Shown here piece by piece: positions 5,180 to 50,263 of a stretch of DNA of 64,000 bases (the first letter of the stretch is position 1; every line of letters starts with the position of its first letter). The position numbers and the translations under genes were made by a program. The notes beneath the pieces were generated by a model. That model made no database searches, was not told where the DNA came from, and worked only from the letters and a program-made list of their open reading frames with translations. Source of the DNA: Candidatus Pacearchaeota archaeon. GTDB taxonomy: Archaea > Nanobdellota > Nanobdellia > Pacearchaeales > GW2011-AR1. The stretch lies in contig JAGVXA010000004.1 in NCBI GenBank assembly GCA_018304025.1, positions 9,719 through 73,718 on the forward strand. Reading direction: 5' to 3'.

Positions 5180-5181
5180 TT

Positions 5182-5589: not shown

Positions 5590-5621
5590 AAGTTTAATAT
5601 TAATAGACAGTTAAAATATCT

Positions 5622-6119: not shown

Positions 6120-6169
6120 ACACAATAATAAAAAATAATGTTTATATAGTTAATGAAATTTATTGAACG

Positions 6170-6815: not shown

Positions 6816-8000
6816 ATGAAGAAAACATTAAGCTTTCTAGTAATGGCTATATTGGCATTATCTGTAATGCCTTCAGTTTTCGCAGTTAGCGTAGGTGGAG
6901 GTATCGGCATAGATATTCAACCAGAGGAGTTCGCTCCTTTAATATGGCAATGCGACTCAAGACTTGTTCTTGAAGACTGCGTTGAAGCAGGAAGAACAAC
7001 TGACTGCAACCAAGACCTTTACGAAAGAATAACAAACTATGCTTTCGAAGGAGAACAAATCGGTTGGGAAATTCTTGTTATGGATAAGAACAAGATTGAA
7101 GAAATCGAGGATGTTGTCGGAACAATCGGCTCAAGCCAAGGAACAGGCAACGATATTGAAGTTGAATGTGACGAAATTGCAACAGAATTTGATGATGGTG
7201 ACAAGCTTCCAGTATCTTGCGAGGCAAGAATTGGCGAAGAGAAATTAACAACTTTTGACTCAGACACAATGGGATTCTATAGATGTCTATTCACTGTTGA
7301 AACACCAGACTCAATGGCTGGAGAATATTTCCTTACAGCAGAAGTAATTTCTGTTGACGGAGAAGCAATAATGGCAGAGAACGAATATTGGTTCTTGAAC
7401 CCTGTGATTGCTTTAACAATAGACGGAGATGTTGAATTCGCAGAAGTTAGACAAGGCTCTGTAGCTTACTCAAATACAATTTTGGTAGGCAATGATGCAG
7501 AAGCTGGCTCAGGCGTTTTGCTTGACATGTTCATTTCAGGAACAGATTTCTACGACTCAGATACATCTGGCGCAATGTGCCCATCTACAAATCACTTGAA
7601 GCTATCTCAAGACTTGAGAAGCCAAGCTAATTTGGGAGCAAAGCTAACTTCTGGTCCATCGCAGAGCACAAAGTGCAATGCAGGAACAGGAGGATTAACT
7701 GGCGTTGACAACAACGACCACTTATGCTACTTTGCAACAAGCGGTGCTTACAGCACAGCAGGTGCACCAAACGCTGATGTAGAAGGTTACAGACCGATTG
7801 TTTACAGCGATGCTTTCACAAGAGATTTCTACAATGATGCAGAAATTATCTGGAACGGTGCTCTTACCGGCGGATACTCCGCAGGAAACACACTAACACC
7901 AGGCAGTGAAATCGCTATGACATTCAAGTTAGGATTACCAGAGCCATGCGTTGGAAACTTTGATTCAGGAGATATATTCTTCTGGGGCGAAGCTATCTAA
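6816..8000 (+). CDS. Secreted protein (signal peptide MKKTLSFLVMAILALSVMPSVFA), probably abundant surface protein
   Basis: A strong SD (AAAGGAGG) sits 8 nt upstream. There is a Sec signal peptide with AxA cleavage. The codon and GC usage is somewhat richer than the neighbours. A TATA-like TTATTTATATAA lies ~110 nt upstream. Confidence 0.6.
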   Translation: MKKTLSFLVMAILALSVMPSVFAVSVGGGIGIDIQPEEFAPLIWQCDSRLVLEDCVEAGRTTDCNQDLYERITNYAFEGEQIGWEILVMDKNKIEEIEDVVGTIGSSQGTGNDIEVECDEIATEFDDGDKLPVSCEARIGEEKLTTFDSDTMGFYRCLFTVETPDSMAGEYFLTAEVISVDGEAIMAENEYWFLNPVIALTIDGDVEFAEVRQGSVAYSNTILVGNDAEAGSGVLLDMFISGTDFYDSDTSGAMCPSTNHLKLSQDLRSQANLGAKLTSGPSQSTKCNAGTGGLTGVDNNDHLCYFATSGAYSTAGAPNADVEGYRPIVYSDAFTRDFYNDAEIIWNGALTGGYSAGNTLTPGSEIAMTFKLGLPEPCVGNFDSGDIFFWGEAI

Positions 8001-10018: not shown

Positions 10019-10501
10019 ATGGATAAAAAAATTATAATCTCCTTAGCCATAATAGCGTCGGTATTATTGATTTATTTTTCAAATCCTCCTTTAATCAGAA
10101 CCCAGATTGAATCTCCTCAAAAACAGCTTCCAGAAAAAACAAAACCTGTAGCAATAACGCAGGAAAACTTCCCAGTTTATCTCCAGCAAAATTCATTAAT
10201 TAAAGAGCTTCCGAAAAAAGCGATTCTCTCATTAAGACTTTATAATTTTGACACAGGCGAAAGAAGATGGGTCGGAGATTACACAATAGAAAAAGATTCT
10301 GTCTCAGAAGGATTGCCAGAATCTCCGGACGCTGAAATTATAATCCATTCGAAATATGCAGGAGAACTAATAAATAATTTTTGCCAAACAATCCAGAATG
10401 CAAAAACCAACAGAGATTTTGCGTTTGAATTAAAAGCAGAAAAATCCTCTCTGCTGTGGAAATACAAAGGCATGATGAAATATAGAGATTGCTTCAGTTG
10501 A
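10019..10501 (+). CDS. Membrane-anchored hypothetical protein
   Basis: An N-terminal TM anchor (IIISLAIIASVLLIYF) is followed by a soluble domain. Confidence 0.4.
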   Translation: MDKKIIISLAIIASVLLIYFSNPPLIRTQIESPQKQLPEKTKPVAITQENFPVYLQQNSLIKELPKKAILSLRLYNFDTGERRWVGDYTIEKDSVSEGLPESPDAEIIIHSKYAGELINNFCQTIQNAKTNRDFAFELKAEKSSLLWKYKGMMKYRDCFS

Positions 10502-10548
10502 CTTTCAAAACCACTAAGTTTAAAACCTGCAATTTGATTAACTATAAA

Positions 10549-11349
10549 ATGACAGTAAAATCATTGAAAAGAACACAAGGAAAAATACCGAGAGAAAGAT
10601 TTTATAAAAATCCGGCAGCCCACATATCAGAAGAAAAGCGGGCGTATTTGTGTTCTCCAGAAGCCAGAAAAAAATATGTAGACATTTCTTACGAAGAAGC
10701 AGAAAAGCTCGGGCAACTAGAAGAATTTTATCGTTTGTTTGCATTGGGCGAGCTGGCTCATCTCGCCGCGACAGGCGCCAGCGGAGAATCAGGCAAATTT
10801 GATTATTACGCAAAAGAATTCGACAGCATGCACGATAAAATCGCCAGAAAAAACACAGGATTAGTTTACAAAATGATTGGTGGGCAGCCTAAAACAGATC
10901 TTGACGATTTAGAATCAGAAGGATTTTATGCTTTGGCAAGAGCAATAGATAAGTTTAATCCATGGTCAGGATATCACTTTTCAACTTATGCCTGCTTTGC
11001 AATAATTCGCGCCGTCGGCAGAAGCAAAAAAAAGCAGTATAGAAACAAAGAAAGATTTAGGCTTTTAACAGATCCTTCCGCAGCATTGGACATTCCAGTA
11101 GAAAATTACGAGCTGTCTTCAGACAATACAGAACGTTTCCTTAAAAACCTCCCAAAGATTTTGATAAACCCAGATGTCCTAGATTTTCTCGATGCTGAAG
11201 TTATATCATCGCGATTTCCAAAAACAGGCGAAAAAGAAAGTCTCGAGTCAATAGGCAGGAGAATTGGTTTGTCAAAAGAAAGAGTCAGGCAGATTCAGAA
11301 CAAAGCATTAGTAAAATTAAGATTCAAATTAGAAGAGTTAGTAGTTTAA
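10549..11349 (+). CDS. Sigma-70 family RNA polymerase sigma factor-like protein (regions 2 and 4); alternative start 10489
   Basis: GFYALARAIDKFNPWSGYHFSTYACFAIIRAV resembles sigma-70 region 2.2-2.4 (GLmkAveKFdp.rGykFSTYAtwwIRqai). LESIGRRIGLSKERVRQIQNKALVKLR resembles region 4.2 (LEEvGkqfgvTRERIRQIEaKALRKLR). Confidence 0.5.
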   Translation: MTVKSLKRTQGKIPRERFYKNPAAHISEEKRAYLCSPEARKKYVDISYEEAEKLGQLEEFYRLFALGELAHLAATGASGESGKFDYYAKEFDSMHDKIARKNTGLVYKMIGGQPKTDLDDLESEGFYALARAIDKFNPWSGYHFSTYACFAIIRAVGRSKKKQYRNKERFRLLTDPSAALDIPVENYELSSDNTERFLKNLPKILINPDVLDFLDAEVISSRFPKTGEKESLESIGRRIGLSKERVRQIQNKALVKLRFKLEELVV

Positions 11350-25109: not shown

Positions 25110-25679
25110 ATGAAACCATCTAAAGAACAGGAAATAATTCGGAGAATATTCAAGGACTTTCAAACTTCCTACAATAGCCGGAGCATTAGCAAGCTAGTTG
25201 GACTTAGCCACGTGGGAGCTTTCAAAATTTTAAAAAAAATAGAAAAAAAAGGAATTGCATCCTCAAAAAAAATAGGAAACGCCGTCATCTATTCGTTAAA
25301 CCTTGCTAACCCCCTCGCACGAAAAGAAATAGAATTATCTCTCCTGATAGATGCTCAAAACCATAAACGCTGGCTGGAAGAATTCAAGGATTTAGAAAAT
25401 ATCTCTGACTTTGTTGTTTTGTTTGGCTCTGTTATCCGCAGCGAATCTTCTGCAAAAGACATAGATGTATTAGTCGTCGCAGAAAGAAGCAATTTCAGCA
25501 AAATAAAAGAAATAATCAAAAAGAGAAATGAAGTTTCAAATAAAAAGATTCATTTGATTCTGCAGGAGCCGGAAGAATTTAAAAAAGACTTAGACAGCAG
25601 AAACAAAGCAATCTTGGAAATAATCAAAACAGGAATTGTTTTGTTTGGACAGGACAATTTTGTACGGAAAATAAAATAA
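25110..25679 (+). CDS. Minimal nucleotidyltransferase (MNT) with N-terminal wHTH
   Basis: The NTase motif is VLFGSVIRSESSAKDIDVLVV (GSxxRGxxxxxSDIDllV). An upstream near-palindrome TTAACTAATAGTTAA is a candidate operator. Confidence 0.6.
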   Translation: MKPSKEQEIIRRIFKDFQTSYNSRSISKLVGLSHVGAFKILKKIEKKGIASSKKIGNAVIYSLNLANPLARKEIELSLLIDAQNHKRWLEEFKDLENISDFVVLFGSVIRSESSAKDIDVLVVAERSNFSKIKEIIKKRNEVSNKKIHLILQEPEEFKKDLDSRNKAILEIIKTGIVLFGQDNFVRKIK

Positions 25680-26188
25680 TGACTCACGCGTCTAACAAAG
25701 TTGAATGGTGCTTAAGAAAAGCCAGAGAAGAGAAAGAGCAGGAAAAGAAGCACAGAGGATTAGTCAAAATAAATCCCGATGTCGAAGAAGCCAGAAAGCA
25801 TATCGAGAAAGCAGAACACAATCTTCGGGCTATAAGTTATTTTAGCGTCGGAGGATTCTCTGACTGGAGTATGAGCGCAGCCTTCTATTGTATTTATCAC
25901 TGTTTCTTGGCAATAAGCATAAACTTAGGTTACGAAAGCAGAAACCAGGAATGCACAATTGCACTGATAAAATATCTTAAAGAAAAAGAAGAAATAGAAA
26001 TTGAAGACAGATTTATCAGCGCTTTGGAAATCTACGACGAACAGGGGCGGCACGAGTCAAATATAATTGAAAAAAGAGAATTATTTACTTACGGAACCAC
26101 AGTTTCAGCAGACAACAGCGAAATTGAGAAAAATGTCCAATTATGCAAAGACTGCTTGTATCAAACAAAGAAAATTATTTTCAAGTGA
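25679..26188 (+). CDS. HEPN-domain protein (partner of MNT)
   Basis: Its start overlaps the MNT stop. The helical core SMSAAFYCIYHCFLAISINLGY resembles COG2250-type HEPN. The canonical Rx4-6H is not obvious. Confidence 0.5.
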   Translation: MTHASNKVEWCLRKAREEKEQEKKHRGLVKINPDVEEARKHIEKAEHNLRAISYFSVGGFSDWSMSAAFYCIYHCFLAISINLGYESRNQECTIALIKYLKEKEEIEIEDRFISALEIYDEQGRHESNIIEKRELFTYGTTVSADNSEIEKNVQLCKDCLYQTKKIIFK

Positions 26189-27502: not shown

Positions 27503-27904
27503 TCAGAAAGAAACCTGCCCAGGTTCTAATCTTTTTACTTGGGTTTTATCAAAATGCTTGTCAAAACTTACAATAGACAACGAATATTTTTTGCAAACAG
27601 CTAATTGAATAGAATCATCAAAATCAATCTGAAACTCTTTCATATCTTTAACAGCAGTTGATTCATCAGAAGTTACAGTATCCACCCGGATAATTTTACT
27701 TCGGGTAATAAATGAAAGAAAACTCTCCAGCGCTTCTGTCTTGTTATTTCTAGCCATGATTACTTCAATAGAATGCAAGGTGAAAGAACTGACGTAAAAA
27801 GAGTCTTTGCTTTTGTCAATGCTCTTCAAAAAAGATTCGCATTCATCCGCCCTTTCTTGATTAAGGAGAACCTCTAAGAATATATTTGTATCGATTAAAT
27901 ACAT
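27503..27904 (-). CDS. vapC: PIN-domain nuclease (VapC-like toxin)
   Basis: The N-terminal MYLIDTNIFLE is the PIN hallmark, and there are conserved acidic residues. An antitoxin-like gene lies immediately upstream. Confidence 0.65.
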   Translation of the reverse strand: MYLIDTNIFLEVLLNQERADECESFLKSIDKSKDSFYVSSFTLHSIEVIMARNNKTEALESFLSFITRSKIIRVDTVTSDESTAVKDMKEFQIDFDDSIQLAVCKKYSLSIVSFDKHFDKTQVKRLEPGQVSF

Positions 27905-29291: not shown

Positions 29292-32200
29292 ATGGTTTCA
29301 ATCCAAAACAAAAAGATATTATTCGTTTCATTAGTTCTGGCGCTTCTCTTCGCCTCCATCGCTTTTGTCGAGTCAGCTTCTGAGGAAAGAATCGTCCTAA
29401 AAAACTCAATCCAAAAAAAATCCCCTCCAGAAAAATCAAGCATATCATTGTTAAAAACTGCTCAAGCCAAGTTGAAACAAAAAAATATTTCAATCAACGA
29501 TTCTCTTCTTTCACCTGTCCAGCCCGCAAGCTCCCCTCCCATTGAAACAGAATGTTTCTGGTTTGATGCAGACACTGACAAAGACATTGACCAATCAGAC
29601 TTCGGAAGATTCACAGCTTGTCTGACAGGACAAGGCAGCCCAATCTCTGTAGAATCCTGCAGAAGATTCGACTCAGATTCAGATAACGACGTCGATTCTT
29701 CAGACAGCGCTGTTTTCCAAACCTGCCTCTCAGGCCCGCAAACTCTTTATCCAAATTTCAATCCGCAGATTTATTATTCAACAATATTATTAAAAAATTT
29801 AGAAGAATCAATTTTAGGCGCAGATGTCAGCGAGCCCTTCGCGCTTTCCCAATCCCAGATAATCTCAATAAATAATTTCATAGAATCAACAAAATCCCCC
29901 TCGTCAAAAAACAATCTGGCTGTAATCAGCAAAAAATTATACTACCCTGTCCAGAATAATCTTTTCACATTCAATCCTTCAGCAGACATAGTCCAGTCAG
30001 GAGACTCAACTCTTTATTACTTGTCCATCTCCGACGGAAACAAATTCCTGCTTTTAGAAAAATCAAATTCTTGGGAGCCCTGCGCAGTCGCGAACACGAA
30101 TAATCCATTTGAAATTTTCAAAGACGTGAATTGCATTTTTGAAACAACAGTTTCAGAAGGAAACCCCCCGTTCTTGATAGAGAATCAGGAAGCAATACAG
30201 CAGATTAATTCTTATCTCTCAGCTAAAAAAACAGAAGGAGTCATAACAGACTACGTCCTGCACGCGCTCGACGACGACCCGAATGAATTAGTCGTCTTAA
30301 CAATTCCAAGCCCAGACTTCCCAGAATTAAGCTTTGCTGTTTCAATGCACGATGCAGACAAATTCGCGCCAGAGCCAAACATGACTCTGAATAAAGATTT
30401 ATTCAACGAGCTAATCAACGACGACGTATTCTTATTCTTGGGCGAAAATTACCAATATGTCTCAGATTTCAAAACTCCTCTCTCAGCTCTAAAATCAATT
30501 TCAGAAAATTCAAATTACAAAGAAAAAACCGCAAGAGCTATTGAAATAATTTCTTCAACAGAATTAACAGACTACGGAGTTTGCGGAGATGGTTATTGCG
30601 ATTCAGATGAAACCTGCATAGAAGATTGCGGCGCAAGAGTTTTCGTGACAAGCCAGATTTACGACGGCAATCTCGGCGGCTTGGCGGGCGCAGACGAAAA
30701 ATGCAGGCAAGCTGCAAAAACCGCAAATCTCGGAGGAATCTGGAAAGCTTACATCGGCACAGAAATACTTCCCGCAGAATCAAGAATTTATCCTTCCCCC
30801 CTGCCTTACAAAAAATTAGACGGAACTTTAATAGCAAACAATTACAATGATTTAACAGACAGCAGTATTGAATCGCAGATTAACATCGACGAGTTCAACG
30901 AATCAGTGCCTGCGCCGGAATATTCAAATTTTATTTTTGCATGGACAGGTTCTGCCGGCTCCGACGGCAAAATAGCTGATTGTAACGATTGGACAAATAA
31001 TAATCTTGTATTCTCTAACGGAAATTGGATTCTGCCGTCTTCTTGGAATAATTATGGCGGCGCAGGAATTATAAACTGGGAAAGTGAAAGGCAAGCGCAA
31101 TGGTCAAGCGCAGTGTCTTCGGGATGCCACGTTAAAAATAAATTATATTGTATCGAACAGCCAGCTTCAGAGCCCTCAAGAATTTTGCAGGCTTCTGCAA
31201 ATCCAAATCCCTCCCCAATTCCAATCCCTCAGGGCATGAATACCGACGAATATTACAGGCTTGTTCAGGGAACAGTCCCGTTCAGAAACGGAATTTTCTT
31301 TTTCCAGGGCCCGATGCTCGGATTGAACAAAATCGAGCAAACTCAGATACTAAGCACAAAAAACACGCTGATGAGATTCAAAAAATTTGGCTACACTTTC
31401 AAATCTCTTTCCGCAGGCCCTTATCCAAATGTGAAAGCAATTGAAAAATTTATAGAATACGTAAAGAACCCTGAATACCAGATTATTTATTCAGATGTTC
31501 ACGCTTCTTCCGGAACTCCTCAGTTGATAGAATGCTGGAAAAGCGACGACGCTGTTTTCATGCAGGGCCCTGATTTCAACGCAGCAATGGCGAGAGTCCA
31601 GCAATTAAGAAACGACCCAAGATACGCCAACTACCAGATAGCAATTAACTCTGTCTGCAAGTATCTTGATGTTCATACCGGAAAAATTAAAACAGAAGGA
31701 TACGGAATTACAGTTTCTCCAATCTGGCTATACCGGATGGATGCCAACGGGCAGAACAGAAAATCAATTGTCTTCCAGGCAACTTGCTTCGGCGGAGTTT
31801 CCCACCTAGTTCCGAATTCTGCAGTGAACAGCTGGATTTCAGTCCCCGACAGAATAACAAAACTAGCTTATTCCGCGGGCGTGAAAGATGTTCTTCTCTT
31901 CACAGATTATTTCCTGACTGAAAGAAGTTTCCCGATGGAAGATTTTCCGTACATTTCAAGCGGGTTGTTAAGAACGCCTTCATTAATTTTCAATAAAGTC
32001 GGAACAAAATATGCTTCGTCCAAAGCGTATTACGACGGAGAAACTACTTTGACCGTCGGAAACACAATAATTTTAGACGGTAGTATCGACACAAATAATC
32101 CCTGCCTTACAAAGCGCTCGTTTTCTTCAGCAAGCATTTTCACAGATTATATTTTCTGCCAGATGATTCACCACGGCGGGACAGGCCCCCAGCCGGAAGT

Positions 32201-33173
32201 TGCGCCAAGAGTCTCGTCTGTTTCAGGCCCCGGATTCAGCAAAAAAACAGAGCCATATGAAGGATGCAACAAATACGGATACCAAGTTAAATACACAAAC
32301 ATGTCAAACGAAATCGAAATTAATTTTAACACGCCGATTCTTCCCGAGCCGAACTCCGTCGAAGTAGATGTCACCGGCTGCGTCGCTGATTTTGAAAAAA
32401 ACCCGGACGTATTGCTAAATTATTACGAATCTGCTTATCCAAAATATTCAATTGATTCTCTGAAAGCGCTGAGCGAATTCAAGCAGGTATATAACTTGCC
32501 AATTAATCCGGATAATTTGTACGACATAAATTGGAGCACAGCGCAGACAAATGCCTACAGCGCAAATTACAAGAATAAATTAAATATAAAATTAAATTGG
32601 TGGCCGTCGAGAAGATACGAGATGTGCCTTCCCCAATCTTTCGAAGGAGAGGCAATCTATCCAGATTACACAAAAATAAACTTCCCAGAACACGATCATT
32701 CCTTCCTTGAAAGCGGCGGAAGAAATCAAAATAGATTAGTCGAGTCAGATGCAACAAGCGATAGCGGATGGAAGGACGACACAATCGAGCCGCCTTGGAC
32801 TAGCGGAGATCCGGACATATGGCAGGACGACTGGTCTTCAGACAGATTTGTAAAAATAACTTTGAAAGGAAATTTAATACGAAGCTGGCCCGCAGGAATA
32901 AAATTCAACGGGCAGAACGCAGATGTCTCTCGGTTTAACATGCTCCAGTCAGGATATAATTATTACGGCGTTTACAATCCCTCGACAAAAAATTTCGATT
33001 TGAAATGGGAGTACTACAACGGCAACGACGCTCCTGGAAAAGATTTCCAAATCTGGTTCCCATGCCAAAAGCCCGTCGTCACTTATAACATACAGCAAAT
33101 TTACTGCGAATCAAACGAAGACTGCCCGCCGGATAATTATTGTCTAGTCGATAAGCATATATGCGTAGGATAA
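29292..33173 (+). CDS. Giant secreted protein (1293 aa) with N-proximal dockerin-like double Ca-binding module and Cys-rich segments
   Basis: There is a signal peptide. Residues 91-150 read DADTDKDIDQSDFGRFTACLTGQG...DSDSDNDVDSSDSAVFQTCLSGPQ. A GDGYCDSDETCIEDCG segment follows, and the protein ends CESNEDCPPDNYCLVDKHICVG. Confidence 0.6.
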   Translation: MVSIQNKKILFVSLVLALLFASIAFVESASEERIVLKNSIQKKSPPEKSSISLLKTAQAKLKQKNISINDSLLSPVQPASSPPIETECFWFDADTDKDIDQSDFGRFTACLTGQGSPISVESCRRFDSDSDNDVDSSDSAVFQTCLSGPQTLYPNFNPQIYYSTILLKNLEESILGADVSEPFALSQSQIISINNFIESTKSPSSKNNLAVISKKLYYPVQNNLFTFNPSADIVQSGDSTLYYLSISDGNKFLLLEKSNSWEPCAVANTNNPFEIFKDVNCIFETTVSEGNPPFLIENQEAIQQINSYLSAKKTEGVITDYVLHALDDDPNELVVLTIPSPDFPELSFAVSMHDADKFAPEPNMTLNKDLFNELINDDVFLFLGENYQYVSDFKTPLSALKSISENSNYKEKTARAIEIISSTELTDYGVCGDGYCDSDETCIEDCGARVFVTSQIYDGNLGGLAGADEKCRQAAKTANLGGIWKAYIGTEILPAESRIYPSPLPYKKLDGTLIANNYNDLTDSSIESQINIDEFNESVPAPEYSNFIFAWTGSAGSDGKIADCNDWTNNNLVFSNGNWILPSSWNNYGGAGIINWESERQAQWSSAVSSGCHVKNKLYCIEQPASEPSRILQASANPNPSPIPIPQGMNTDEYYRLVQGTVPFRNGIFFFQGPMLGLNKIEQTQILSTKNTLMRFKKFGYTFKSLSAGPYPNVKAIEKFIEYVKNPEYQIIYSDVHASSGTPQLIECWKSDDAVFMQGPDFNAAMARVQQLRNDPRYANYQIAINSVCKYLDVHTGKIKTEGYGITVSPIWLYRMDANGQNRKSIVFQATCFGGVSHLVPNSAVNSWISVPDRITKLAYSAGVKDVLLFTDYFLTERSFPMEDFPYISSGLLRTPSLIFNKVGTKYASSKAYYDGETTLTVGNTIILDGSIDTNNPCLTKRSFSSASIFTDYIFCQMIHHGGTGPQPEVAPRVSSVSGPGFSKKTEPYEGCNKYGYQVKYTNMSNEIEINFNTPILPEPNSVEVDVTGCVADFEKNPDVLLNYYESAYPKYSIDSLKALSEFKQVYNLPINPDNLYDINWSTAQTNAYSANYKNKLNIKLNWWPSRRYEMCLPQSFEGEAIYPDYTKINFPEHDHSFLESGGRNQNRLVESDATSDSGWKDDTIEPPWTSGDPDIWQDDWSSDRFVKITLKGNLIRSWPAGIKFNGQNADVSRFNMLQSGYNYYGVYNPSTKNFDLKWEYYNGNDAPGKDFQIWFPCQKPVVTYNIQQIYCESNEDCPPDNYCLVDKHICVG

Positions 33174-33236: not shown

Positions 33237-34073
33237 ATGAAAACAAAAGTTTTCTCTGTACTGGCAGCAGGATTAATTTTAGCAATGCTAATTCTCGCAG
33301 GCCCTGCGCAGGGTTTTACATTAAGTCTTGCGTTGGATAATTCCTCGCCGACAATCGGAGATAAAATAAATTTCACAGCCGAAATAAATATTCCTTCGGG
33401 AGAGCAGCTTCCAATGGAATATCTAACATTAGAATTATCCGGCCCGGAAACAGGCGCTTGCAAATTTTCTCCAGACGGAACAATCATAAGTGGATGCAAG
33501 GGAATAACAATTTCATTAAATCAAAATTCAAATTATGGTTACGGTTACGGATATGGATACGGCTACCAATCGGGAAAATTAATTTACACAATTACCGTCG
33601 ATACTTCACAATACAAGACAGGAGAATACTCGACAAGTTTTAATGTAAAAACAAATCCTTTGTTCACTCAGTCAGGTCCGTCTTTCAATATAATAGCAAA
33701 ACAATCAAGCGGCGGTTCAGGATGCTACACTCAATGGCAATGCACAGACTGGACTGAATGCGTCGACGGCGAGCAATTCCGTTCATGTTCTAAAAAAATA
33801 AATTACTGCTCCGCAGCCAAGCAGCCGGAATTGGAAAGAACTTGTTTGAATCAAAAATCTTTGGCTTCCGTCAGCAAAAACAAGAATAGCGACGGCAAAA
33901 TAGAATTAAACGAGACAGAAACATTAAGCCAGTCGTCTCAAAAATTAGCTTCAGCAATAACCGGAGCAGTTACAGGCGTGGCTGGCGACGTCGGCTACGG
34001 CGGAATTATAATTTTTGTTGTCGTGGTTTTGGGCTCGCTTTTCTTGATTGTTTTCCTGAGAAGAGTCTTGTAA
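33237..34073 (+). CDS. Surface-anchored protein with (GY)n repeat and C-terminal TM anchor
   Basis: It has a signal peptide, a NYGYGYGYGYGYQ repeat and a C-terminal GGIIIFVVVVLGSLFLIVFLRRVL anchor. It is paralogous to the next gene. Confidence 0.55.
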   Translation: MKTKVFSVLAAGLILAMLILAGPAQGFTLSLALDNSSPTIGDKINFTAEINIPSGEQLPMEYLTLELSGPETGACKFSPDGTIISGCKGITISLNQNSNYGYGYGYGYGYQSGKLIYTITVDTSQYKTGEYSTSFNVKTNPLFTQSGPSFNIIAKQSSGGSGCYTQWQCTDWTECVDGEQFRSCSKKINYCSAAKQPELERTCLNQKSLASVSKNKNSDGKIELNETETLSQSSQKLASAITGAVTGVAGDVGYGGIIIFVVVVLGSLFLIVFLRRVL

Positions 34074-34144
34074 TTGTAAAATTTACCACTGGAATATAAT
34101 GAAAGAGATTTATATATTTGCTATTCTTCTATAAATCAAGTAAA

Positions 34145-35029
34145 ATGGGGGATGTGAGCAAAATTTCTGCAACTGCAATAACTTTGTTAGTTCTTTCCAT
34201 CTTGATTATAACTGGTCCTGCAAGAGCTTTTGTCCTCGGTTTTTCAGTGTTGAATAACATCCCAATTCCCGGCGCGCCAGTTAATTTTTTAGTTTCAGCT
34301 GAAATAGAGCACGATGAAATTTTAAATATAAAAAATTTCACTTTCGAATTAACAGGTCCACAAAGTTTAACCTGCGATTTTCTTCCGAACGGAACTATTT
34401 TAACTTCTTGTCCGGGAATTAAAATTGAACAAATCGAATCTGCAGAATTTCAATTCGGATATGGCTACGGCTACGGTTATGGATATGGCTACGGCTACGG
34501 CTACGGCGAAAATGGTTTCCTCCGAGGATTTCTAAAATATAATATTACTCTCGACTCAAACACATTGCCCGCAGGAGAATACACCGCAAAACTTTTCGCA
34601 GCAACACCGACGGAGAGATTCCAGAGTTCAGAAGAAGAATTAACAATATTCAAGGAGTTGGCGCCAGTGGAAAAATGCTCGATACGTGCAGAGAAAGGAA
34701 AAATATCTATCGATGGCAAATCCCTGGAATCTCCAAGAACAAAACTTAATCTCGGTGTTCCAGAAAACAGGGCGCAGAAAGGAAAAGGATTTATAACAGC
34801 GCAGGGAGGAAGAGACAGAATAACTTACCAGTTTAAAGTAGACAAAGCAGCTAGAATCAGCGCAGACACAATTCTTTTCTTCACGTCGGGAGTTTTAGAG
34901 CATAATAAGGAAAAAACTTCAGAGTCCGCGCTGATTTCATTCAACACAAAATCCTTTAAGACACAAGTTATTGTCGACGGAGAGTCGCTTAAAATTCAGG
35001 AAATGGATGTTAATTTCGCCAAATGTTAA
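34145..35029 (+). CDS. Secreted (GY)n-repeat protein, paralog of 33237..34073
   Basis: It has a signal peptide (ITLLVLSILIITGPARA), the conserved LTGPQSLTCDFLPNGTILTSCPGIKI block, and a (GY)11 repeat. Confidence 0.55.
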   Translation: MGDVSKISATAITLLVLSILIITGPARAFVLGFSVLNNIPIPGAPVNFLVSAEIEHDEILNIKNFTFELTGPQSLTCDFLPNGTILTSCPGIKIEQIESAEFQFGYGYGYGYGYGYGYGYGENGFLRGFLKYNITLDSNTLPAGEYTAKLFAATPTERFQSSEEELTIFKELAPVEKCSIRAEKGKISIDGKSLESPRTKLNLGVPENRAQKGKGFITAQGGRDRITYQFKVDKAARISADTILFFTSGVLEHNKEKTSESALISFNTKSFKTQVIVDGESLKIQEMDVNFAKC

Positions 35030-35030
35030 G

Positions 35031-35810
35031 ATGAAAAAAATTTTTTGTATTTTCTTTTTCGCTGTAATTTTTTCTGCGCTGGTGTCCTCTGCAGAATTCA
35101 GCCCGAATATTTTAGTTTATAGTCTTGAGCCAAATCAAGAACTATGCCAGCAGATAATAATCTTCTCTGAAACATTAAAAAAATTTGAAGTTTCCGACAG
35201 ATTGTCTGAAAATTCCAGAATTGAAATCAACTTCACAAAAACCATAGACAGATTCAAGGGAGAAAAAATAATTGACATCTGCATAAAAGGAAACCAGAAC
35301 GGAATTTACAACGGAATGGTTTTTTTCAGAGATCCGGCAGAAAAAAATACTAGTCTGTTCGCCGGTTCTGTCCAAATTTTCGTCGACGTTTCAGAAATTC
35401 AGCAATCTCCTTCTGAAATTATCTCTTCCCCCTCGGCAAGTTCAGGCGGCGGGGGAGGTGGTGGGGGTGGCGGCGGCAGTTCAGCAAAACCAAAAACAAC
35501 AGCAAATAAAAATCAAACAATAGCCAACAAAACAATTCAATCACTCTCCGTCCAAACCAAGGAAATTTCAAATTCAAATAACGAGTCTCCCCACGACGCT
35601 TCAGAAATAACCGGCGCAGCAGTCAGCACAAATTCCAAATTAAAACCAATTATCCCGATAATTTTCATCCTCGCTGTTTTGGTATTCTTCGTATACTCGA
35701 AAATAAACCCTTCGGGAAAAAATCCAAGTTCACCAAAGAAAAGGAGTAACACGCATTTAAATAAATCCTCGTCTATTAAACTTATTGAAAGGAGGTTAAA
35801 AAAGAGATGA
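35031..35810 (+). CDS. Surface-anchored protein: signal peptide, conserved N-domain, Ser/Gly-rich linker, C-terminal TM anchor
   Basis: The start is MKKIFCIFFF. It has a G10 run and a C-terminal PIIPIIFILAVLVFFVY anchor. It is paralogous to 36882..37670. Confidence 0.5.
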   Translation: MKKIFCIFFFAVIFSALVSSAEFSPNILVYSLEPNQELCQQIIIFSETLKKFEVSDRLSENSRIEINFTKTIDRFKGEKIIDICIKGNQNGIYNGMVFFRDPAEKNTSLFAGSVQIFVDVSEIQQSPSEIISSPSASSGGGGGGGGGGGSSAKPKTTANKNQTIANKTIQSLSVQTKEISNSNNESPHDASEITGAAVSTNSKLKPIIPIIFILAVLVFFVYSKINPSGKNPSSPKKRSNTHLNKSSSIKLIERRLKKR

Positions 35811-36880
35811 AAAAACTTTTAGTTTTAACAGTTTTGTTTGGCTTGATGCTTTCTATAAGTGGAGTTTTTGCTATCAGTGCATCAATTAGTCGTTCTTCAA
35901 CAGGCGCAGCATATTCTGTTACAAGCGACGTGCAATCAAGTTCTATTCCTAATTCGTTGCATACGAATGCAGACTTAATTACTAATTATCCTCCCTCAAA
36001 TGAAGGAAGAATTAGAATAACTTTTGACACGCCTATGCCTCTTAACAATTTAGAAAAAATTTCTTGGATGCAGTATGTAACGAAAGGATACTTAACACAC
36101 GTCGATATATTGTTAGAATCAGGAGAAGTTCTAGTAGCAGAAGGAGCCCATCAACACGGTAATCTTATAACTGGCTGGCCAGAAAATACTTGGATTAAAA
36201 CATTTAATGGAGTTAATTGTGATATGTCCACACACTGGGCTGATGGCTGGATAGATTGTCCTTCTGATTTAACTAGTGTTAATAACTGGACAAATGTTTG
36301 GAAAGATAGTGGTGGGACGGATGGAACAGGAACCGACGGTCCAAATCTTCAGTCCTTAGAAAAATACAAAAAAGGTTGGAACAATATAATCGGAACCAAT
36401 TTAGTAACTGCCATAGAAATCGAAGTAGACGGATGGGTAGCAGAATCTGAAGCATATATAGATGACATAAAAATAAATGACGATTTAATCACAAACTTTG
36501 ATGATTCAACGCAAATCATCGGAGAAATTAATGAAAATGTAGAGGTTCAAATTTCTCCAGCAGTTCTTAACTTTGGATCCCTCTTACCAGGAACTTCAGG
36601 AAATCCTGCGATTAATGGACCAATAACAATTAATCCAACAGGAAGCAATGTTGATGTGCAGGTTACAGTAACGAATGTAGCAGGATTCCCGTTCGAAACA
36701 GGACTTAAACTCGATGGAAATAATCCTATTGGAAAAATTTGGAATATGGATTGTGTAGGAACAAACATTTGTGCGTATACTTCAGCAACAACTATTCCAA
36801 CTCTGAACATTCCTGCAGGAGCATCAGTCGGAGCAAAGAGCGGGGTAATAACTTATTTCGTTGCGGCACAACCACATTAA
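35807..36880 (+). CDS. Secreted hypothetical protein
   Basis: The SD is GAAAGGAGG. The signal peptide is MKKLLVLTVLFGLMLSISGVFA. Confidence 0.55.
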   Translation: MKKLLVLTVLFGLMLSISGVFAISASISRSSTGAAYSVTSDVQSSSIPNSLHTNADLITNYPPSNEGRIRITFDTPMPLNNLEKISWMQYVTKGYLTHVDILLESGEVLVAEGAHQHGNLITGWPENTWIKTFNGVNCDMSTHWADGWIDCPSDLTSVNNWTNVWKDSGGTDGTGTDGPNLQSLEKYKKGWNNIIGTNLVTAIEIEVDGWVAESEAYIDDIKINDDLITNFDDSTQIIGEINENVEVQISPAVLNFGSLLPGTSGNPAINGPITINPTGSNVDVQVTVTNVAGFPFETGLKLDGNNPIGKIWNMDCVGTNICAYTSATTIPTLNIPAGASVGAKSGVITYFVAAQPH

Positions 36881-36881
36881 G

Positions 36882-37670
36882 ATGAAACGCTTTTTTCTTT
36901 TTTTCTTTTTTATATTAATATCAGTCCAAACAATAACAGCAGTCAGATTTTCTCCTTCAAGTCTGACTTATATGTTAGAGCCAAACGAAGAATTATGTCA
37001 AATGATTTCCCTCAACTCAGAATCTTCACTGATAATTGTTTCAGATGCTTGGACGAAGAACGAGAGTGATGAATGGAAAATCACCCTATTCAACACAACA
37101 GCAGAAGAACATGGCTTGGCAATTTCTTATCCAAAAACTCTTTCAATAAACGAAAGGCAAGTTAACGTCTGTATTTCTGGAACAAAAGAGGGAGAGTTTC
37201 ATGGCGTAATAATAATGAGTCAGAAACAACAAGGAAATTCTATCATTCAGATGGGAGTCTGGCTCAAAGTAATCATTAAAGAAAAACCAATAGAGCAAGC
37301 AACTTCCCAAACAACTTCCCAAACAACAACCACCCCAAGCAGCAGCGGAGGCAGCAGCTCCCCGCCAAAAACAATCCCCCAGAACCAAACTCAAAAAAAC
37401 AAAACATCGACGGAAAACAGCATCAGGCAGTTATCAGCCGAAAAAACCCAGCCCCAAGAAGAGAAAGTATCCAATATAGGAATAACCGGAAAAGTCGTTA
37501 CTGAATCAAACAACAAACTAAGATACTCCACTGCCATAATCATTTTAATAATCATAGCACTCGCCATTGCAGTAGTTTACATAAAAAAAAGGCAAAATCC
37601 ATATGAAAAAATATTTTCTCGCGCTCGCAGGAATTCTTTTAATTACAACTGTCTTTGCAGTTTTAGTTGA
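36882..37670 (+). CDS. Surface-anchored protein, paralog of 35031..35810
   Basis: It has MKRFFLFFFFILISVQTITA, the shared LEPNxELCQ block, a Thr/Ser/Gln-rich linker and a C-terminal TM anchor. Its tail overlaps the next gene by 67 nt. Confidence 0.45.
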   Translation: MKRFFLFFFFILISVQTITAVRFSPSSLTYMLEPNEELCQMISLNSESSLIIVSDAWTKNESDEWKITLFNTTAEEHGLAISYPKTLSINERQVNVCISGTKEGEFHGVIIMSQKQQGNSIIQMGVWLKVIIKEKPIEQATSQTTSQTTTTPSSSGGSSSPPKTIPQNQTQKNKTSTENSIRQLSAEKTQPQEEKVSNIGITGKVVTESNNKLRYSTAIIILIIIALAIAVVYIKKRQNPYEKIFSRARRNSFNYNCLCSFS

Positions 37671-39861
37671 ACAGCAATTAACCGCAACAGTTTTAGAATA
37701 TCCGAAAGTTTTAATCAATGAATTCACAGTAGACCCGCAGACAGACTGGGACGGAAGCGGCTCAGCAACTACGTCAGACGAATGGGTGGAATTATACAAC
37801 ACCCAGCCAATCCCAATTGATTTAACCAGCTGGACTTTAGTCCTCAACGATTCAACAGACGAATTCGAATCCCTAATAGGAATTATTCCGCCATATAGTT
37901 ATTTAGTTATCTATCCAGACGGATCCCAAAATAACGACGGGCAATTGCTTCTTTACGACAATTCAAGCATTCTTATCGACGCAGTAGCATACGGAGACTG
38001 GGACGACGGAAACACAGCAGACAACGCGCCGGATGGAAACGCAAATAACATTACAAACGAATGTCTCTCAAGATTGCCGAATGCAAAAGACACAAACACA
38101 GACAATACTGATTTTACAAAATTAACTTGCACTTACGAACAGTCCAATAATGCCTGGAACATGACTCTCATCCCAGTTGTCATAACAGATATTCCTTCAA
38201 TTCCTTTCTGCCTCTTGGAAACAGACAGCTTAATAGTTTCAGCAAACATAACAGGCAGCATAAAAAAAATCTCTCTCTCTTATAGCACGGGCGGAGCTTG
38301 GAAAGAAATTTCTCTCCCCGGAAATACCGAAGGAATTTATTCAGCAGCAATACCCTCTTCAGAATTAAATGGCAAATCAACGGTCTCTTGGAAATTTGTT
38401 GTCGAAAACATCGCCGGAGATTTAACCTACGGAACAGAGCAAAGCAAAAGCATTGCTAAAAGAACTCTCCTCTCAATCTCCCCATCACAGCCAGATGGAC
38501 AAAACAACTGGTACATCACCGAACCGACTTTCACTTTGGAAAATCCTGACGCATCAATTATAGAATACAGATGGAATGGAAACTTTTTCATATACTCAAA
38601 ACCATTCAAACTCGAAGGCACGCCAAACAACGCAAGCCTCACTGGCGGAATCAGCATGCTAAAATATTGGAGTGATGTTTGTTCAGGAGAGCCAGAACAA
38701 AATCAAACATTTCATTTTGATTTCACAAGCCCAATAATAGAACAAACATCTCCAACAGGGCAGATAACAAAACTAAAACCTACGATAAGCGCGTACATCG
38801 ATGAAAAATATTCGCAAAACTCAGGAATTAATATCTCAAAAATAACAATAAAATTAGACAACGCCGACGTAACCAAAGACGCTGTAATCTCTCCGATAGA
38901 CGCGATCGACGCAGCAATAACTTATTCTCCGGTGGAAAACTTGTCAGTTGGCCAGCACGAAGTAACAATCAGCGCAGAAGACAAGGCAGGAAGAAACTCG
39001 CAATTAACTTGGACATTTGAAATTGTAAAAAGCTTCACGCTAAAATTAGCAGTTGACTATCCTGAATCAAAAGATTACAACATCAAAAGAATTCCGTTCA
39101 ATCTGACAACTTCAGAACAATCAAGAAAAATAGAATACATAAATTACGCAGACAACAAGCCAAGATGGCAGACGCTCTGTTCAAACTGCGACAGCTACGG
39201 CGCCGAAAAAATAAAAACCAAAATCCTCAAAGAAGGATGGAACAATCTGACAATTAGAGCAATAGGAGAATTTAGCACGGACGAAAAAAATATTTCAATA
39301 TTCATCGACTCAAAAGCGCCGGTAATATCAAAAACAGAACCAGCCAGAAATAAAATAATCAACGGCTCTTTCTTCCGGGTAAAATACACAGAAGAAAATC
39401 CTGCAAATATAAAATTATTCTGGAATCCAAACATAACCTTGCAAAATTGCACATCAGGAAGAAACCAAGTCTGTTCTACTTCAATAAATCTCTCTAACTT
39501 TGATGACCAATTGATTGATTATTATTTTGAAATCTCCGACGGAATAAACACAGTAAAGTCAAAAACTAATAAAGTTTTTGTTGACACAACTTCTCCCCGA
39601 TTAGCAATTAACCTTCCACAAAACGAAACAGTTTACAGAAGCAAGGTTCCATTCAACCTCACAGTTTCAGAAAAAGCAGAAATTGAATACTTCGATATTT
39701 CATCAGGAGCAAAATGGATAAAGCTCTGTTCAAACTGCGACAGCTACGGCGCCGAGAAAATAAAATACAAAAGATTCAGCAGGGGAAATCACAACATTCT
39801 AATCAGCGCAACAGACAAGGCTGGAAACTCCGACGTCAAACAGGTTTTTTTCACAGCTTAA
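37603..39861 (+). CDS. Large secreted protein with repeated Ig-like DKAGN-type domains
   Basis: It has a signal peptide. The repeated WQTLCSNCDSYGAEKIK module occurs twice and ends in ATDKAGN. It is paralogous to 8196..9875. Confidence 0.6.
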   Translation: MKKYFLALAGILLITTVFAVLVEQQLTATVLEYPKVLINEFTVDPQTDWDGSGSATTSDEWVELYNTQPIPIDLTSWTLVLNDSTDEFESLIGIIPPYSYLVIYPDGSQNNDGQLLLYDNSSILIDAVAYGDWDDGNTADNAPDGNANNITNECLSRLPNAKDTNTDNTDFTKLTCTYEQSNNAWNMTLIPVVITDIPSIPFCLLETDSLIVSANITGSIKKISLSYSTGGAWKEISLPGNTEGIYSAAIPSSELNGKSTVSWKFVVENIAGDLTYGTEQSKSIAKRTLLSISPSQPDGQNNWYITEPTFTLENPDASIIEYRWNGNFFIYSKPFKLEGTPNNASLTGGISMLKYWSDVCSGEPEQNQTFHFDFTSPIIEQTSPTGQITKLKPTISAYIDEKYSQNSGINISKITIKLDNADVTKDAVISPIDAIDAAITYSPVENLSVGQHEVTISAEDKAGRNSQLTWTFEIVKSFTLKLAVDYPESKDYNIKRIPFNLTTSEQSRKIEYINYADNKPRWQTLCSNCDSYGAEKIKTKILKEGWNNLTIRAIGEFSTDEKNISIFIDSKAPVISKTEPARNKIINGSFFRVKYTEENPANIKLFWNPNITLQNCTSGRNQVCSTSINLSNFDDQLIDYYFEISDGINTVKSKTNKVFVDTTSPRLAINLPQNETVYRSKVPFNLTVSEKAEIEYFDISSGAKWIKLCSNCDSYGAEKIKYKRFSRGNHNILISATDKAGNSDVKQVFFTA

Positions 39862-46748: not shown

Positions 46749-48428
46749 TTGTTACTCCAAAAAATGACACCAAATCTAAGCGATAACAAAAAAGCACAAT
46801 CTTCAATTCTGGTATTTTTATTTATACTCATTTTATTTCTGCTTGCAAGTGCTGCTCTCGTCTTTTTATTATTCTCTTATTCTCCTTCAACTGTAAAAAA
46901 AGAAATCACTAATTCAAATTACAATGAAATTGAACAAGACGCAGTTTTCATTCCAATAAGCAAAGATATAATAGACACAGACGAGGACAGCGTGGAAGAC
47001 ATCGAGGATAACTGCCCGCTCCATTTTAATCCGTTCCAAGAGGACAAAGACGAAGACGGAAAAGGAGACGCCTGCGACGTCTCAAGGTCAAATAGAAACA
47101 GTCACGACGATGACGACGAAATAGAGTGTTCTTCTAATTCAGACTGCGGCACAGGCGCATTAACAGGAAATAGATTTTGCCAATCAGGCGACGTCTATCA
47201 AAATTTCAAAAATCACACTTGCAATAATCCCGGTAAAACATCTTCATCCTGCTCTTCTTCAACAACCCCTAAATTAATTCAAGATTGTATCTTCGGATGC
47301 GCTAACGGAACTTGCATTGTTCCGGCTTGCAGCACAAACACAGACTGCGACGACAGCAATAATTACACAGAAGACATCTGCAAAAATCCAGGCACATCTC
47401 AAAGCTATTGCGAGCACAATCCTATTGCTTGTTTGAAAAATATGGACTGCGGATTTAACGAATTAATCGGCAATTTATTTTGTTCTTCAAATAATTTAAA
47501 TGTGTTGCAATTATTCCAGTCTTGGATTTGTCTTTCTCCGGGCACAGCGCAATCCTCTTGCTCTTCTTCAACAACTCCCCAAATAATCCAAACATGCTCA
47601 GACATTTGCGTTAATGGAGAATGCAAAGATATAGAATGTTACAACAACGCAGATTGCGGCACAGACGGATTAATCAACCAGCCAACTTGCTCAGGACTAA
47701 ATGTCGTTCAAGATTTTAAAATATTCCGTTGCAATAATCCTGGAACTCCGCAATCATCTTGTTCTTTCTCGCTCTGCCAGGAAATCCAGCAGTTATGTTC
47801 AGATGCTTGCATTGCAGGAATTTGCGCCGATATAGAATGTTATAACAACGCAGATTGCAATGACGCAAATCTTCTAACAGAAGACATTTGCCACAATCCA
47901 GCAACACCAGAATCTTACTGCACCAACGAATTAATATCAGAATGTATTCCAGGACAAACTCAGCAATGTGGAACTTCTAATATTGGAGAATGCGATTTCG
48001 GAACAAAGACATGTAATTCTTACGGTTCTTGGAACAGCGAATGCGTCGGTGAAGTTTTGCCTTCAAATGAAATCTGCGACGGAAAAGACAACGACGGGCA
48101 AGTTTGTTATTCAGGAACAGGACAATGCAGAAAAGCTGGAAACTTTGTTTGTTCATCAAATGGATTAACAACAAATTGTAATGCGGTTGCTGGAACACCA
48201 ACAGCAGAAATCTGCGACGGAAAAGACAACGACTGCGACGGTTCAACAGACGAAAATAATGTCTGCGCATCTGGATGTACAAGCGAATGTCCAGTATTTG
48301 AAGCAAGACAATGCACAAGTGGCGGTTACAGAGTCTGCGGAAACTTCGACACTGATTCATGCCTTGATTGGTCTCTGATAACTCAATGCGGCTTGGGTTC
48401 AACATGCTCAGGAGGCTACTGTGTTTAA
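46749..48428 (+). CDS. Secreted/membrane-anchored protein with thrombospondin type-3-like Ca-binding repeat, 8-Cys tandem repeats and MopE-like (CDGKDNDCDG) repeats
   Basis: It has an N-terminal TM, then DNCPLHFNPFQEDKDEDGKGDACD (TSP3 consensus DNCPxxxNPxQxDxDxDGxGDACD). Its repeats are homologous to those of 43847. It also has EICDGKDNDGQ / EICDGKDNDCDGSTDENN. Confidence 0.6.
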   Translation: MLLQKMTPNLSDNKKAQSSILVFLFILILFLLASAALVFLLFSYSPSTVKKEITNSNYNEIEQDAVFIPISKDIIDTDEDSVEDIEDNCPLHFNPFQEDKDEDGKGDACDVSRSNRNSHDDDDEIECSSNSDCGTGALTGNRFCQSGDVYQNFKNHTCNNPGKTSSSCSSSTTPKLIQDCIFGCANGTCIVPACSTNTDCDDSNNYTEDICKNPGTSQSYCEHNPIACLKNMDCGFNELIGNLFCSSNNLNVLQLFQSWICLSPGTAQSSCSSSTTPQIIQTCSDICVNGECKDIECYNNADCGTDGLINQPTCSGLNVVQDFKIFRCNNPGTPQSSCSFSLCQEIQQLCSDACIAGICADIECYNNADCNDANLLTEDICHNPATPESYCTNELISECIPGQTQQCGTSNIGECDFGTKTCNSYGSWNSECVGEVLPSNEICDGKDNDGQVCYSGTGQCRKAGNFVCSSNGLTTNCNAVAGTPTAEICDGKDNDCDGSTDENNVCASGCTSECPVFEARQCTSGGYRVCGNFDTDSCLDWSLITQCGLGSTCSGGYCV

Positions 48429-49669: not shown

Positions 49670-50263
49670 ATGGTAAAAAATTTCTTGCCAGCCGCGTTAG
49701 CAATAATTTTAATCCTCAATATAACAGCAGCCGCAGCAATTACAGGAGCAATCGGAAATTCCCGAATGGTTTTAAGAATGGAGCAGGGCGAGGAAATTGA
49801 AAAATACGTTCTGGTAAAAAACGTAAATGATATTCCTCTGACAATAGACTTGATTATAACAGGAGATTTGGCAGACGAAGTTGAATTAGAAGAAGAGTCG
49901 TTTGTTCTGCAGCCAAAAGAAGAAAAGAAAGCATACTTCACAATCACGGCTGCAAAATCAGGAACAACAGAAACAAAAATTAATGTCAAATTCACGCCCG
50001 AAGAAGGAAACGGCGTCGGATTATCCTCGTCGGTAATTGTAATAACTTCGGGCGAGGGCGAAGAAGAATTAGACGATTCAGAAACAGATGATTCAGGCGC
50101 AGGCTCTCCATTAACAGGCTCAGTGATATCAGACAATCTTTCAAAAATATCAAGCACAACAATTTTAACAGTTTCAGCAGCAGTTTTGATTCTCGCACTG
50201 TTAGCATTAATAATCTATTCAATAAACAAAAAGAAAAAAAAGGTGAGGAGGTCCAATGCCTAA
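49670..50263 (+). CDS. Secreted protein with acidic linker and C-terminal TM anchor + poly-Lys tail
   Basis: It has a signal peptide, a beta-rich domain, a DDSETDDSGAG linker and a C-terminal ILTVSAAVLILALLALIIYSINKKKKK anchor. Confidence 0.5.
   Translation: MVKNFLPAALAIILILNITAAAAITGAIGNSRMVLRMEQGEEIEKYVLVKNVNDIPLTIDLIITGDLADEVELEEESFVLQPKEEKKAYFTITAAKSGTTETKINVKFTPEEGNGVGLSSSVIVITSGEGEEELDDSETDDSGAGSPLTGSVISDNLSKISSTTILTVSAAVLILALLALIIYSINKKKKKVRRSNA

Follow-up and report, generated by a model that had tools for sequence, protein, structure and literature searches.

A divergent dockerin-fold module shared by a subtilisin-type protease and a giant secreted protein of a Pacearchaeota archaeon

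The stretch of DNA from a tiny groundwater archaeon, Candidatus Pacearchaeota archaeon, that was analyzed in this study (contig JAGVXA010000004.1, positions 9,719 to 73,718; 64,000 nucleotides, referred to below as the window) contains an island of genes for secreted proteins. Two of its products, a giant adhesin-like protein and a subtilisin-type S8 protease, each carry one divergent dockerin-fold module that, from its sequence and a predicted structure, has two "F-hand" units in tandem, each a 12-residue Ca2+-type loop with its following helix, and a short linker helix between them. Dockerins of this non-cellulosomal type are already known; the copies described here are divergent and come from an archaeal host lineage for which we found no earlier report. 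The interpretation that we prefer, with a probability of roughly 0.6, is that the module is a Ca2+-binding, disulfide-clasped tag of dockerin fold that would dock two anchorless secreted proteins onto a surface receptor.

In the giant protein the module comprises residues 88–150, ~60 residues past the signal-peptide-like N terminus, so that the first-pass annotation was correct in placing two Ca2+-loop segments near the N terminus of this protein. The elements are, in order, Cys88, putative Ca2+ loop 1, helix 1 ending at Cys110, a short linker helix with Cys123, putative Ca2+ loop 2, and helix 3 ending at Cys145. Loop 1, DADTDKDIDQSD, has 12 residues with Asp at positions 1, 3, 5, 7, 9, and 12 and Ile at position 8. 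All four segments, two in each carrier, are 22-residue loop-plus-helix units with linkers of 12–13 residues. Their loops, DADTDKDIDQSD, DSDSDNDVDSSD, DYDRDGDIDMID, and DFDRDNDVDKDD, all have the features of a dockerin segment: a 12-residue Ca2+-type loop with Asp or Asn at positions 1, 3, 5, and 9, Asp at position 12, and a hydrophobic residue at position 8, followed by a helix and a short linker. The protease module has the canonical four-cysteine pattern of the family described below (QSC, FEC, DMC, and TNC). Positions of the carriers, modules, and segments are listed in Table 1.

Table 1. Module-bearing proteins of the window and the parts of their modules (positions numbered from the first letter of the window)
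Feature	Position	Strand	Content or evidence
Giant adhesin-like secreted protein, 1293 residues (carrier 1)	29292..33173	+	Open reading frame, signal-peptide-like N terminus
Dockerin-like module of giant protein	29553..29750	+	AF2 model, Foldseek, family profile 85 bits
Giant protein segment 1, DADTDKDIDQSDFGRFTACLTG	29565..29630	+	Loop DADTDKDIDQSD and exiting helix FGRFTACLTG
Giant protein segment 2, DSDSDNDVDSSDSAVFQTCLSG	29670..29735	+	Putative Ca2+-binding loop DSDSDNDVDSSD and helix SAVFQTCLSG
Subtilisin-type secreted protease, 841 residues (carrier 2)	54582..57107	-	Pfam Peptidase_S8, E 2e-53
Dockerin-like module of S8 protease, residues ~770-841	54585..54800	-	Family profile 82 bits
S8 protease segment 1, DYDRDGDIDMIDFGHLQSCFSG	54785..54720	-	Loop DYDRDGDIDMID and FGHLQSCFSG
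S8 protease segment 2, DFDRDNDVDKDDLNKFDMCLSG	54683..54618	-	Loop DFDRDNDVDKDD and LNKFDMCLSG

The recurrence of the module at the C terminus of the S8 protease, also proposed in that annotation, is borne out by several comparisons. A six-frame regular-expression scan of the 64-kb window found the segment pattern at these four places only, and the strict pattern never appeared when the 30,779 residues of the open reading frames (ORFs) of the window were shuffled 300 times, a result that rejects a chance or low-complexity origin. The two modules are 48% identical over 58 residues (pairwise BLASTP, E 5e-18) and 43% identical over the 80 columns of a MAFFT alignment. A family profile built from 59 foreign members only gives 85 bits for the module of the giant protein and 82 bits for that of the protease, which makes both clear members of the family, and has no further hit in the window at E ≤ 1. 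From the pattern scan, the shuffles, the pairwise alignment, and the foreign-only profile together, the recurrence is real and far beyond chance.

The family itself was delineated by an exhaustive profile search of 1.84 billion representative proteins, with the two window modules as the query; it comprises 6,719 representative clusters at E ≤ 1e-3, of which 609 reach E ≤ 1e-10. Its consensus, DFDxDGDVDQxDFGxFQxCLSGxGxPxxxPxCxxAxLDxDxDVDxxDxxxFxxCxSGPxxPxxPxC, includes four conserved cysteines. The subtype is abundant in environmental bacteria and is usually found at the C terminus of secreted multidomain proteins: the module is C-terminal in 108 of the 149 best hits scored, and the other domains present in 73 family members are of extracellular types (PKD, BACON, thrombospondin type 3 (TSP3), F5/8-C, RHS, immunoglobulin (Ig), and CBM). 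All named relatives are from Planctomycetes/Phycisphaerae, and the window copies are divergent, with 38–58% identity to family members. Neither module has a match in NCBIfam, and a word-index homology search with a 77-residue module sequence found none.

The relationship to dockerins is apparent through these intermediates. Pfam Dockerin_1 (PF00404) matches 36 of 61 family modules at E ≤ 0.01 (best 1.2e-9) and 30 of 73 full-length family members at E ≤ 0.001 (best 1e-12); among database entries of the family, several already bear a PF00404 annotation, and one goes by the name "Dockerin type I domain". Among solved structures, the family profile matches the type I dockerin of Clostridium cellulolyticum Cel5A (2vn5_B) over the whole domain with E 8.4e-6, profile positions 8–67 lying on chain residues 3–58. 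The best solved-structure match (E 5e-7) is to 8x39_A, a chain named "Serine protease", in two successive stretches that each span the whole profile; this 8x39/8x3a chain (151–152 residues) appears to hold two tandem modules and differs from the window family in having no conserved cysteines. The foreign profile, the Dockerin_1 matches of the family, and the solved dockerins thus connect the window modules to dockerins by intermediate homology.

The predicted fold agrees with this assignment. The AlphaFold2 (AF2) model of the giant-protein module (predicted local distance difference test score, pLDDT, 91) has the three helices of a dockerin, at protein residues 101–109, 121–126, and 136–145; each helix begins at loop position 10, and each loop is followed by a helix of 9–10 residues. 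When the model was ranked against the Protein Data Bank (PDB) with Foldseek, nine of the 10 best matches were dockerins, with a TM-score of 0.70 and a root mean square deviation (rmsd) of 2.5 Å over 60 columns for 2y3n_B.

Two Ca2+ loops could also signify a generic EF-hand pair or a TSP3 Ca2+-binding repeat that is not a dockerin at all, an explanation that we consider scarcely tenable. It is true that EF-hand pairs, such as those of CIB1 and calmodulin, have the same 12-residue DxDxDxxxDxxD Ca2+ loop followed by a helix, that EF-hand_7, EF-hand_6, and EF-hand_5 match the modules weakly (E 0.06–1.2), and that a few family members have TSP_3 elsewhere in the protein. However, all four loops end in Asp at position 12, as dockerin loops do, rather than in the Glu of EF-hands, only a single loop of EF-hand proteins such as CIB1 is matched by the family profile, and the EF-hand matches in Foldseek superpose poorly, with rmsd >10 Å. 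The EF-hand_7 match, with E 0.06, reaches 14 bits as compared with a threshold of 30. TSP_3 does not match the modules even at E ≤ 10, and in the confident model the loops each lead into a helix, unlike TSP3 repeats. Because of the ties to dockerins and the Asp at position 12, we classify the module as a dockerin-fold domain, albeit a divergent one, and reject EF-hands, TSP3 repeats, and chance as explanations.

Type I dockerins (PF00404; exemplified by Cel5A) resemble the window modules in size (~65 residues), in the two 22-residue loop-helix segments with Asp or Asn at loop positions 1, 3, 5, 9, and 12 (Asp at 12) and Ile or Val at position 8, in the short linker helix, and in their terminal position on secreted enzymes, in addition to the profile and fold matches given above. 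The window family differs from them in its four conserved cysteines, the helix-end Cys replacing the Tyr/Leu of the "kkyllg" sequence, and in an all-Asp loop. The window copies also differ in scoring below the Pfam threshold and in being attached to an archaeal protease and an adhesin-like protein with no context of carbohydrate-active enzymes (CAZymes) and no cohesin or scaffoldin found in the window.

The conserved cysteines are distributed in pairs. In the 131 family modules used for cysteine statistics, the Cys of helix 1 and the Cys preceding loop 2 (C1 and C2) are both present nearly always, whereas the Cys of helix 3 and the C-terminal Cys (C3 and C4) are both present in 91 modules, both absent from 23, and discordant in 17 (Fisher p 1e-12). 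This co-occurrence suggests two disulfides, C1–C2 and C3–C4, which probably fasten the end of each helix to the strand after it (in the giant protein, in one case to the strand before it, the expected pairs there being Cys110–Cys123 and Cys88–Cys145). In the giant-protein module C4 is missing, and a Cys stands four residues ahead of loop 1 instead (ECFWFD). This combination is seen in just three of the sampled modules, that of the giant protein among them, and an alignment of archaeal modules shows the pre-loop Cys without C4 in the giant protein, in its homologue P0021 (described below), and in P0027. The N and C termini of dockerins lie together, so the pre-loop Cys is suitably located to act as a substitute for C4, and it probably replaces C4 in the giant-protein module. 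Elsewhere in the window, the ORF at 5622..6125 (-) shows a faint resemblance to DsbB (E 5e-4, 21 bits as compared with a threshold of 22.1) that hints at a capacity for extracytoplasmic disulfide formation; if so, it would be a source of disulfides for the many Cys-rich secreted proteins of the island.

The giant protein is identical in sequence to MBS3088418.1 (Candidatus Pacearchaeota archaeon). It also contains, at residues ~426–572, a sub-threshold DUF1554 region similar to LenA and LenB (endostatin-like, Leptospira), which starts with a Cys-rich CGDGYCDSDETCIEDCG motif; the region is kept in P0021. The S8 protease has a signal-peptide-like N terminus followed by a fervidolysin-like propeptide, the S8 catalytic domain (residues 157–421), β-propeller repeats, and the C-terminal dockerin-like module, and its gene is found on 23 metagenomic contigs (ENA, JGI, and Logan assemblies). 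There is no transmembrane anchor in either the giant protein or the S8 protease, and several of the neighboring proteins have one. A full-length serpin is encoded two genes from the protease, at 57798..59105 (-) (Pfam Serpin, E 3e-118), an arrangement that is kept on all contigs seen. The serpin and the dockerin-tagged protease may constitute a protease-inhibitor pair; a scan with the family profile found no dockerin-like module in the serpin.

Homologues of the giant protein are P0021 (1609 residues, from a JGI metagenome) and the products of two tandem genes in an Altiarchaeota metagenome-assembled genome (MAG; locus L086). No relative turned up among the GTDB species representatives when genome contigs were scanned with the giant protein. 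The homologues are ~30% identical to the giant protein over the N-terminal ~480 residues and again near the C terminus. In all of them the module occupies the same N-terminal site, with an identity there of 50–58%; it is the best-conserved part of the family across distant archaeal lineages, which argues for function rather than drift. In addition to this module, the homologues encoded at 2614..7443 of locus L085, which contains the P0021 gene, and at 4887..9692 of L086 carry single loop-helix half-segments that stand alone well inside the protein. These correspond to profile positions 40–70 and are located at residues ~537–569 and ~904–933 in one homologue and ~1042–1070 in the other (domain E 0.015–0.23); they may be remnants or single F-hand Ca2+ sites.

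According to the mechanism that we favor, the two carriers would leave the cell by Sec export, and the exported module would then fold around two Ca2+ ions and be locked by the disulfides. It would function as a non-covalent docking tag, by which a surface receptor, on the archaeon or on its host, would retain the subtilase and the giant adhesin-like protein; this receptor may be a non-cohesin ligand, or a cohesin whose gene lies outside the window. Several observations weigh against this mechanism. Both modules miss the Dockerin_1 gathering threshold of 22.9 bits, with 15.6 bits (E 0.019) for the giant protein and 10.3 bits (E 0.85) for the protease. The original description of duplicated Ca2+-binding segments resembling dockerins therefore holds through the intermediates and the fold, whereas direct comparison of the modules with Pfam profiles leaves Dockerin_1 below threshold, EF-hand weaker still, and TSP_3 without a match. 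The Foldseek E-values are weak (0.4–2) for the 77-residue model, so the fold match rests on the ranking, the TM-score, and the rmsd. Pfam Cohesin (PF00963) has no match in the 52 window ORFs scanned. Type I dockerins contact cohesins through positions 10/11 of each segment, and these are QS/SS in the giant protein as compared with MI/KD in the protease; because the recognition positions differ between the two modules, one shared partner is not obvious. Finally, the literature searched contains no demonstration of Ca2+ binding, disulfides, or docking for members of the four-cysteine subtype.

The same observations bear on the most familiar version of docking, a canonical cohesin-dockerin assembly in which both modules bind cohesins of a surface scaffold or anchor of their own archaeon, encoded outside the 64-kb window. 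The dockerin fold and the profile links favor such an assembly, and we regard it as possible but doubtful. Non-cellulosomal dockerins and cohesins occur in bacteria and archaea, and according to PMC9012536 (citing Peer et al. 2009 and Haimovitz et al. 2008), archaeal cohesin-dockerin pairs are verified by binding in Archaeoglobus fulgidus and are abundant in ANME archaea. The modules described there are, like those of the window, on archaeal secreted proteins unrelated to cellulose, with a suggested role in cell-surface or cell-cell assembly; they differ in that cohesins are detectable in those genomes and binding was shown for A. fulgidus, whereas here none is detected in the window and the host is a member of the DPANN archaea. 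For Phycisphaerae, a "planctosome" with dockerin-tagged peptidases and a lamin-tail-domain (LTD) anchor has been put forward, as a hypothesis only (PMC6461901). The four-cysteine modules of Planctomycetes/Phycisphaerae have the same subtype consensus (DFDxDGDVDQxDFGxFQxCLSG...C...DxDxDxDVDxxD...FxxCxSGP...C), and attachment to a peptidase and co-occurrence with LTD proteins are common to that proposal and the window, which encodes an LTD protein at 37603..39861. The window copies differ in being archaeal and only 38–58% identical, and one of them is N-terminal with the last Cys exchanged for a pre-loop Cys.

Against a cohesin-based assembly, beyond the absence of Pfam Cohesin from the scanned window ORFs and the different recognition positions of the two modules, Cohesin is not among the 25 most frequent of the 55 co-domain families in the 73 family members, and the top candidate chosen by neighborhood, discussed below, is PapD/ASH-like rather than cohesin-like. 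The window contains no sign of a cellulosome-type system: it has neither a cohesin nor a dockerin-tagged CAZyme. The cohesin-dockerin assembly system that the first-pass annotation had envisaged is thus unsupported within the window. Its suggestion that the partner might be among the secreted proteins of the island fares no better, because the candidate at 49670..50263 gives weak Ig/ASH-like matches only, that at 35807..36880 has no Pfam match, and the neighbor of the latter at 36861..37670 is modeled as PapD/ASH-like.

The protein encoded at 36861..37670 was the strongest candidate by neighborhood because, in locus L085, the gene for P0021 lies next to that for a 236-residue homologue of it (42% identity, E 5e-41), which is also homologous to 34971..35810, and next to that for a 147-residue homologue of the C-terminal domain of 35807..36880 (56%, E 6e-41). 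The 36861..37670 family is restricted to DPANN archaea (22 hits, with no Pfam domain in any). In its members a signal peptide precedes a β domain of ~110 residues, and a long linker leads from there to an invariant I-T-G motif, a transmembrane helix, and a basic tail. The model of the β domain (block-mean pLDDT mostly 80–95) resembles ASH/PapD-like Ig sandwiches, namely hydin, CEP192, and chaperone-usher chaperones such as CsuC, Caf1M, and FaeE, and no cohesin was present in the top 50 matches of the structure search. It is conceivable that these membrane-anchored neighbors, 34971..35810 and 36861..37670, are themselves the receptors and form a non-cohesin docking pair with the module, since a homologue of theirs adjoins the giant-protein homologue in L085 and their architecture, with an Ig-like domain on a long linker above a C-terminal transmembrane helix, is that of surface-displayed proteins. 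We consider this very improbable. The three-gene cassette to which they belong recurs in five further loci (L087–L091, ~73 kb), and all five are devoid of a dockerin-like module. In L086, which has two giant paralogues, the one short upstream gene compared (207 residues) has no BLAST match and the other called genes belong to unrelated Pfam families, no search for the cassette itself having been made in that locus. The cassette resembles a self-contained module of fibre or pilus type. From its fold, which is PapD/ASH-like and not a jelly roll, and from the five module-free loci, the 36861..37670 protein is neither a cohesin nor specifically tied to the dockerin-like module.

The negative search for a partner in the window is compatible with the module having no partner, in which case it would be a structural cap stabilized by Ca2+ and disulfides, or an element for folding or solubility, a device to "fold after export". 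Helix positions of both buried and exposed appearance (DVDQxDFGxFQxC) are conserved in thousands of proteins of unrelated taxa, unlike the species-specific recognition surfaces of dockerins. However, a terminal, single-copy, autonomous module of 65 residues on very different catalytic and adhesive domains has the typical signature of a tag for targeting or docking, and its nearest structural relatives are docking modules; a partner-less cap is therefore unlikely in our estimation. We also hold to be rather improbable, as a more specific form of docking, that the four-cysteine module constitutes a functionally distinct family with a non-cohesin ligand, which in ultra-small DPANN archaea (Pacearchaeota and Altiarchaeota) would be a tag, locked by Ca2+ and disulfides, fixing a protease and giant adhesins to the envelope of the host or of the archaeon itself, the N-terminal, Cys-permuted version being an archaeal adaptation. 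If this were true, it would represent a surface-attachment system without scaffoldins.

Several other features of the island and of the window were observed. The DPANN cassette at 35807..37670 (paralogue 34971..35810) recurs in all six foreign loci examined (L085 and L087–L091) with a conserved order: a secreted β-rich protein of ~150 residues, a membrane-anchored PapD/ASH-like Ig protein of ~235 residues, and then a ~310-residue protein or an LTD/Big_13 protein. In the window the ~150-residue protein is fused as the C-terminal domain of 35807..36880. As chaperone-usher chaperones have this PapD-like fold, the cassette could, by analogy, be an uncharacterised archaeal module for assembly of fibres or pili. 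The C termini of 33237..34073, 34971..35810, and 36861..37670 have the form ...ITGxVxG followed by a transmembrane helix and a basic tail, I-T-G being invariant in 23 of 23 aligned family members; this tail is a possible C-terminal sorting or processing signal, perhaps archaeosortase-like, and no match to a known sorting signal was found. The adjacent genes 33237..34073 and 34118..35029 encode paralogous secreted proteins, both with an N-terminal Ig-like region and a run of (GY)n repeats (GYGYGYGYGY...) and both without a Pfam match.

The 752-residue protein at 37603..39861 (+) has a lamin tail domain (E 3e-12), Big_13, and duplicated "CSNCDSYGAEKIK" motifs, and resembles the LTD "anchor" of the planctosome model (PMC6461901). 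LTD/SNase-LTD and Big_13 proteins flank the PapD-like cassette in L087, L088, and L091 too. A 559-residue protein at 46749..48425 (+), with weak matches to TSP_3 (residues 76–97, E 5e-4) and to the MopE metal-binding motif (E 5e-5), would be a further Ca2+- or metal-binding secreted protein of the island, unrelated to the dockerin-like profile. Just upstream of the island, at 25110..26188 and 27503..27904, are a nucleotidyltransferase/HEPN pair and a PIN-domain gene that are toxin-antitoxin-like. The ORF at 10489..11349 (+) has bacterial Sigma-70 regions 2 (E 2e-8) and 4 (E 5e-12) in an otherwise archaeal contig; this is unusual in an archaeon and may reflect transfer from bacteria. A tRNA of 132 nucleotides at 4440..4571 (-) (Rfam, 40.7 bits), missed by ARAGORN, presumably contains an intron, and 54045..54539 has, by reading of its sequence, an archaeal-pilin-like N terminus; the intron-length tRNA and this N terminus fit an archaeal origin of the window. 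The isoleucyl-tRNA synthetase of the window has at best ~72% identity to those of Woesearchaeota, Pacearchaeota, and Nanoarchaeota MAGs.

Giant proteins rich in dockerins have been described in Omnitrophota (bioRxiv 10.1101/2023.11.21.568195). In the literature searched, no paper links dockerins to Pacearchaeota, Woesearchaeota, or Altiarchaeota, and searches combining dockerin with DPANN or planctomycete names yielded no description of the four-cysteine subtype. Because non-cellulosomal dockerins are well known, and no partner or new mechanism was found, our results extend an established theme. Attachment to other cells is the presumed way of life of DPANN archaea such as Pacearchaeota, and how they retain enzymes and adhesins at the surface is little understood. 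A dockerin-fold tag common to a subtilase, encoded near a serpin, and to a conserved giant protein provides a handle on this surface retention. Since standard Pfam thresholds miss the copies in the window, dockerin-type tags in DPANN genomes are probably under-counted.

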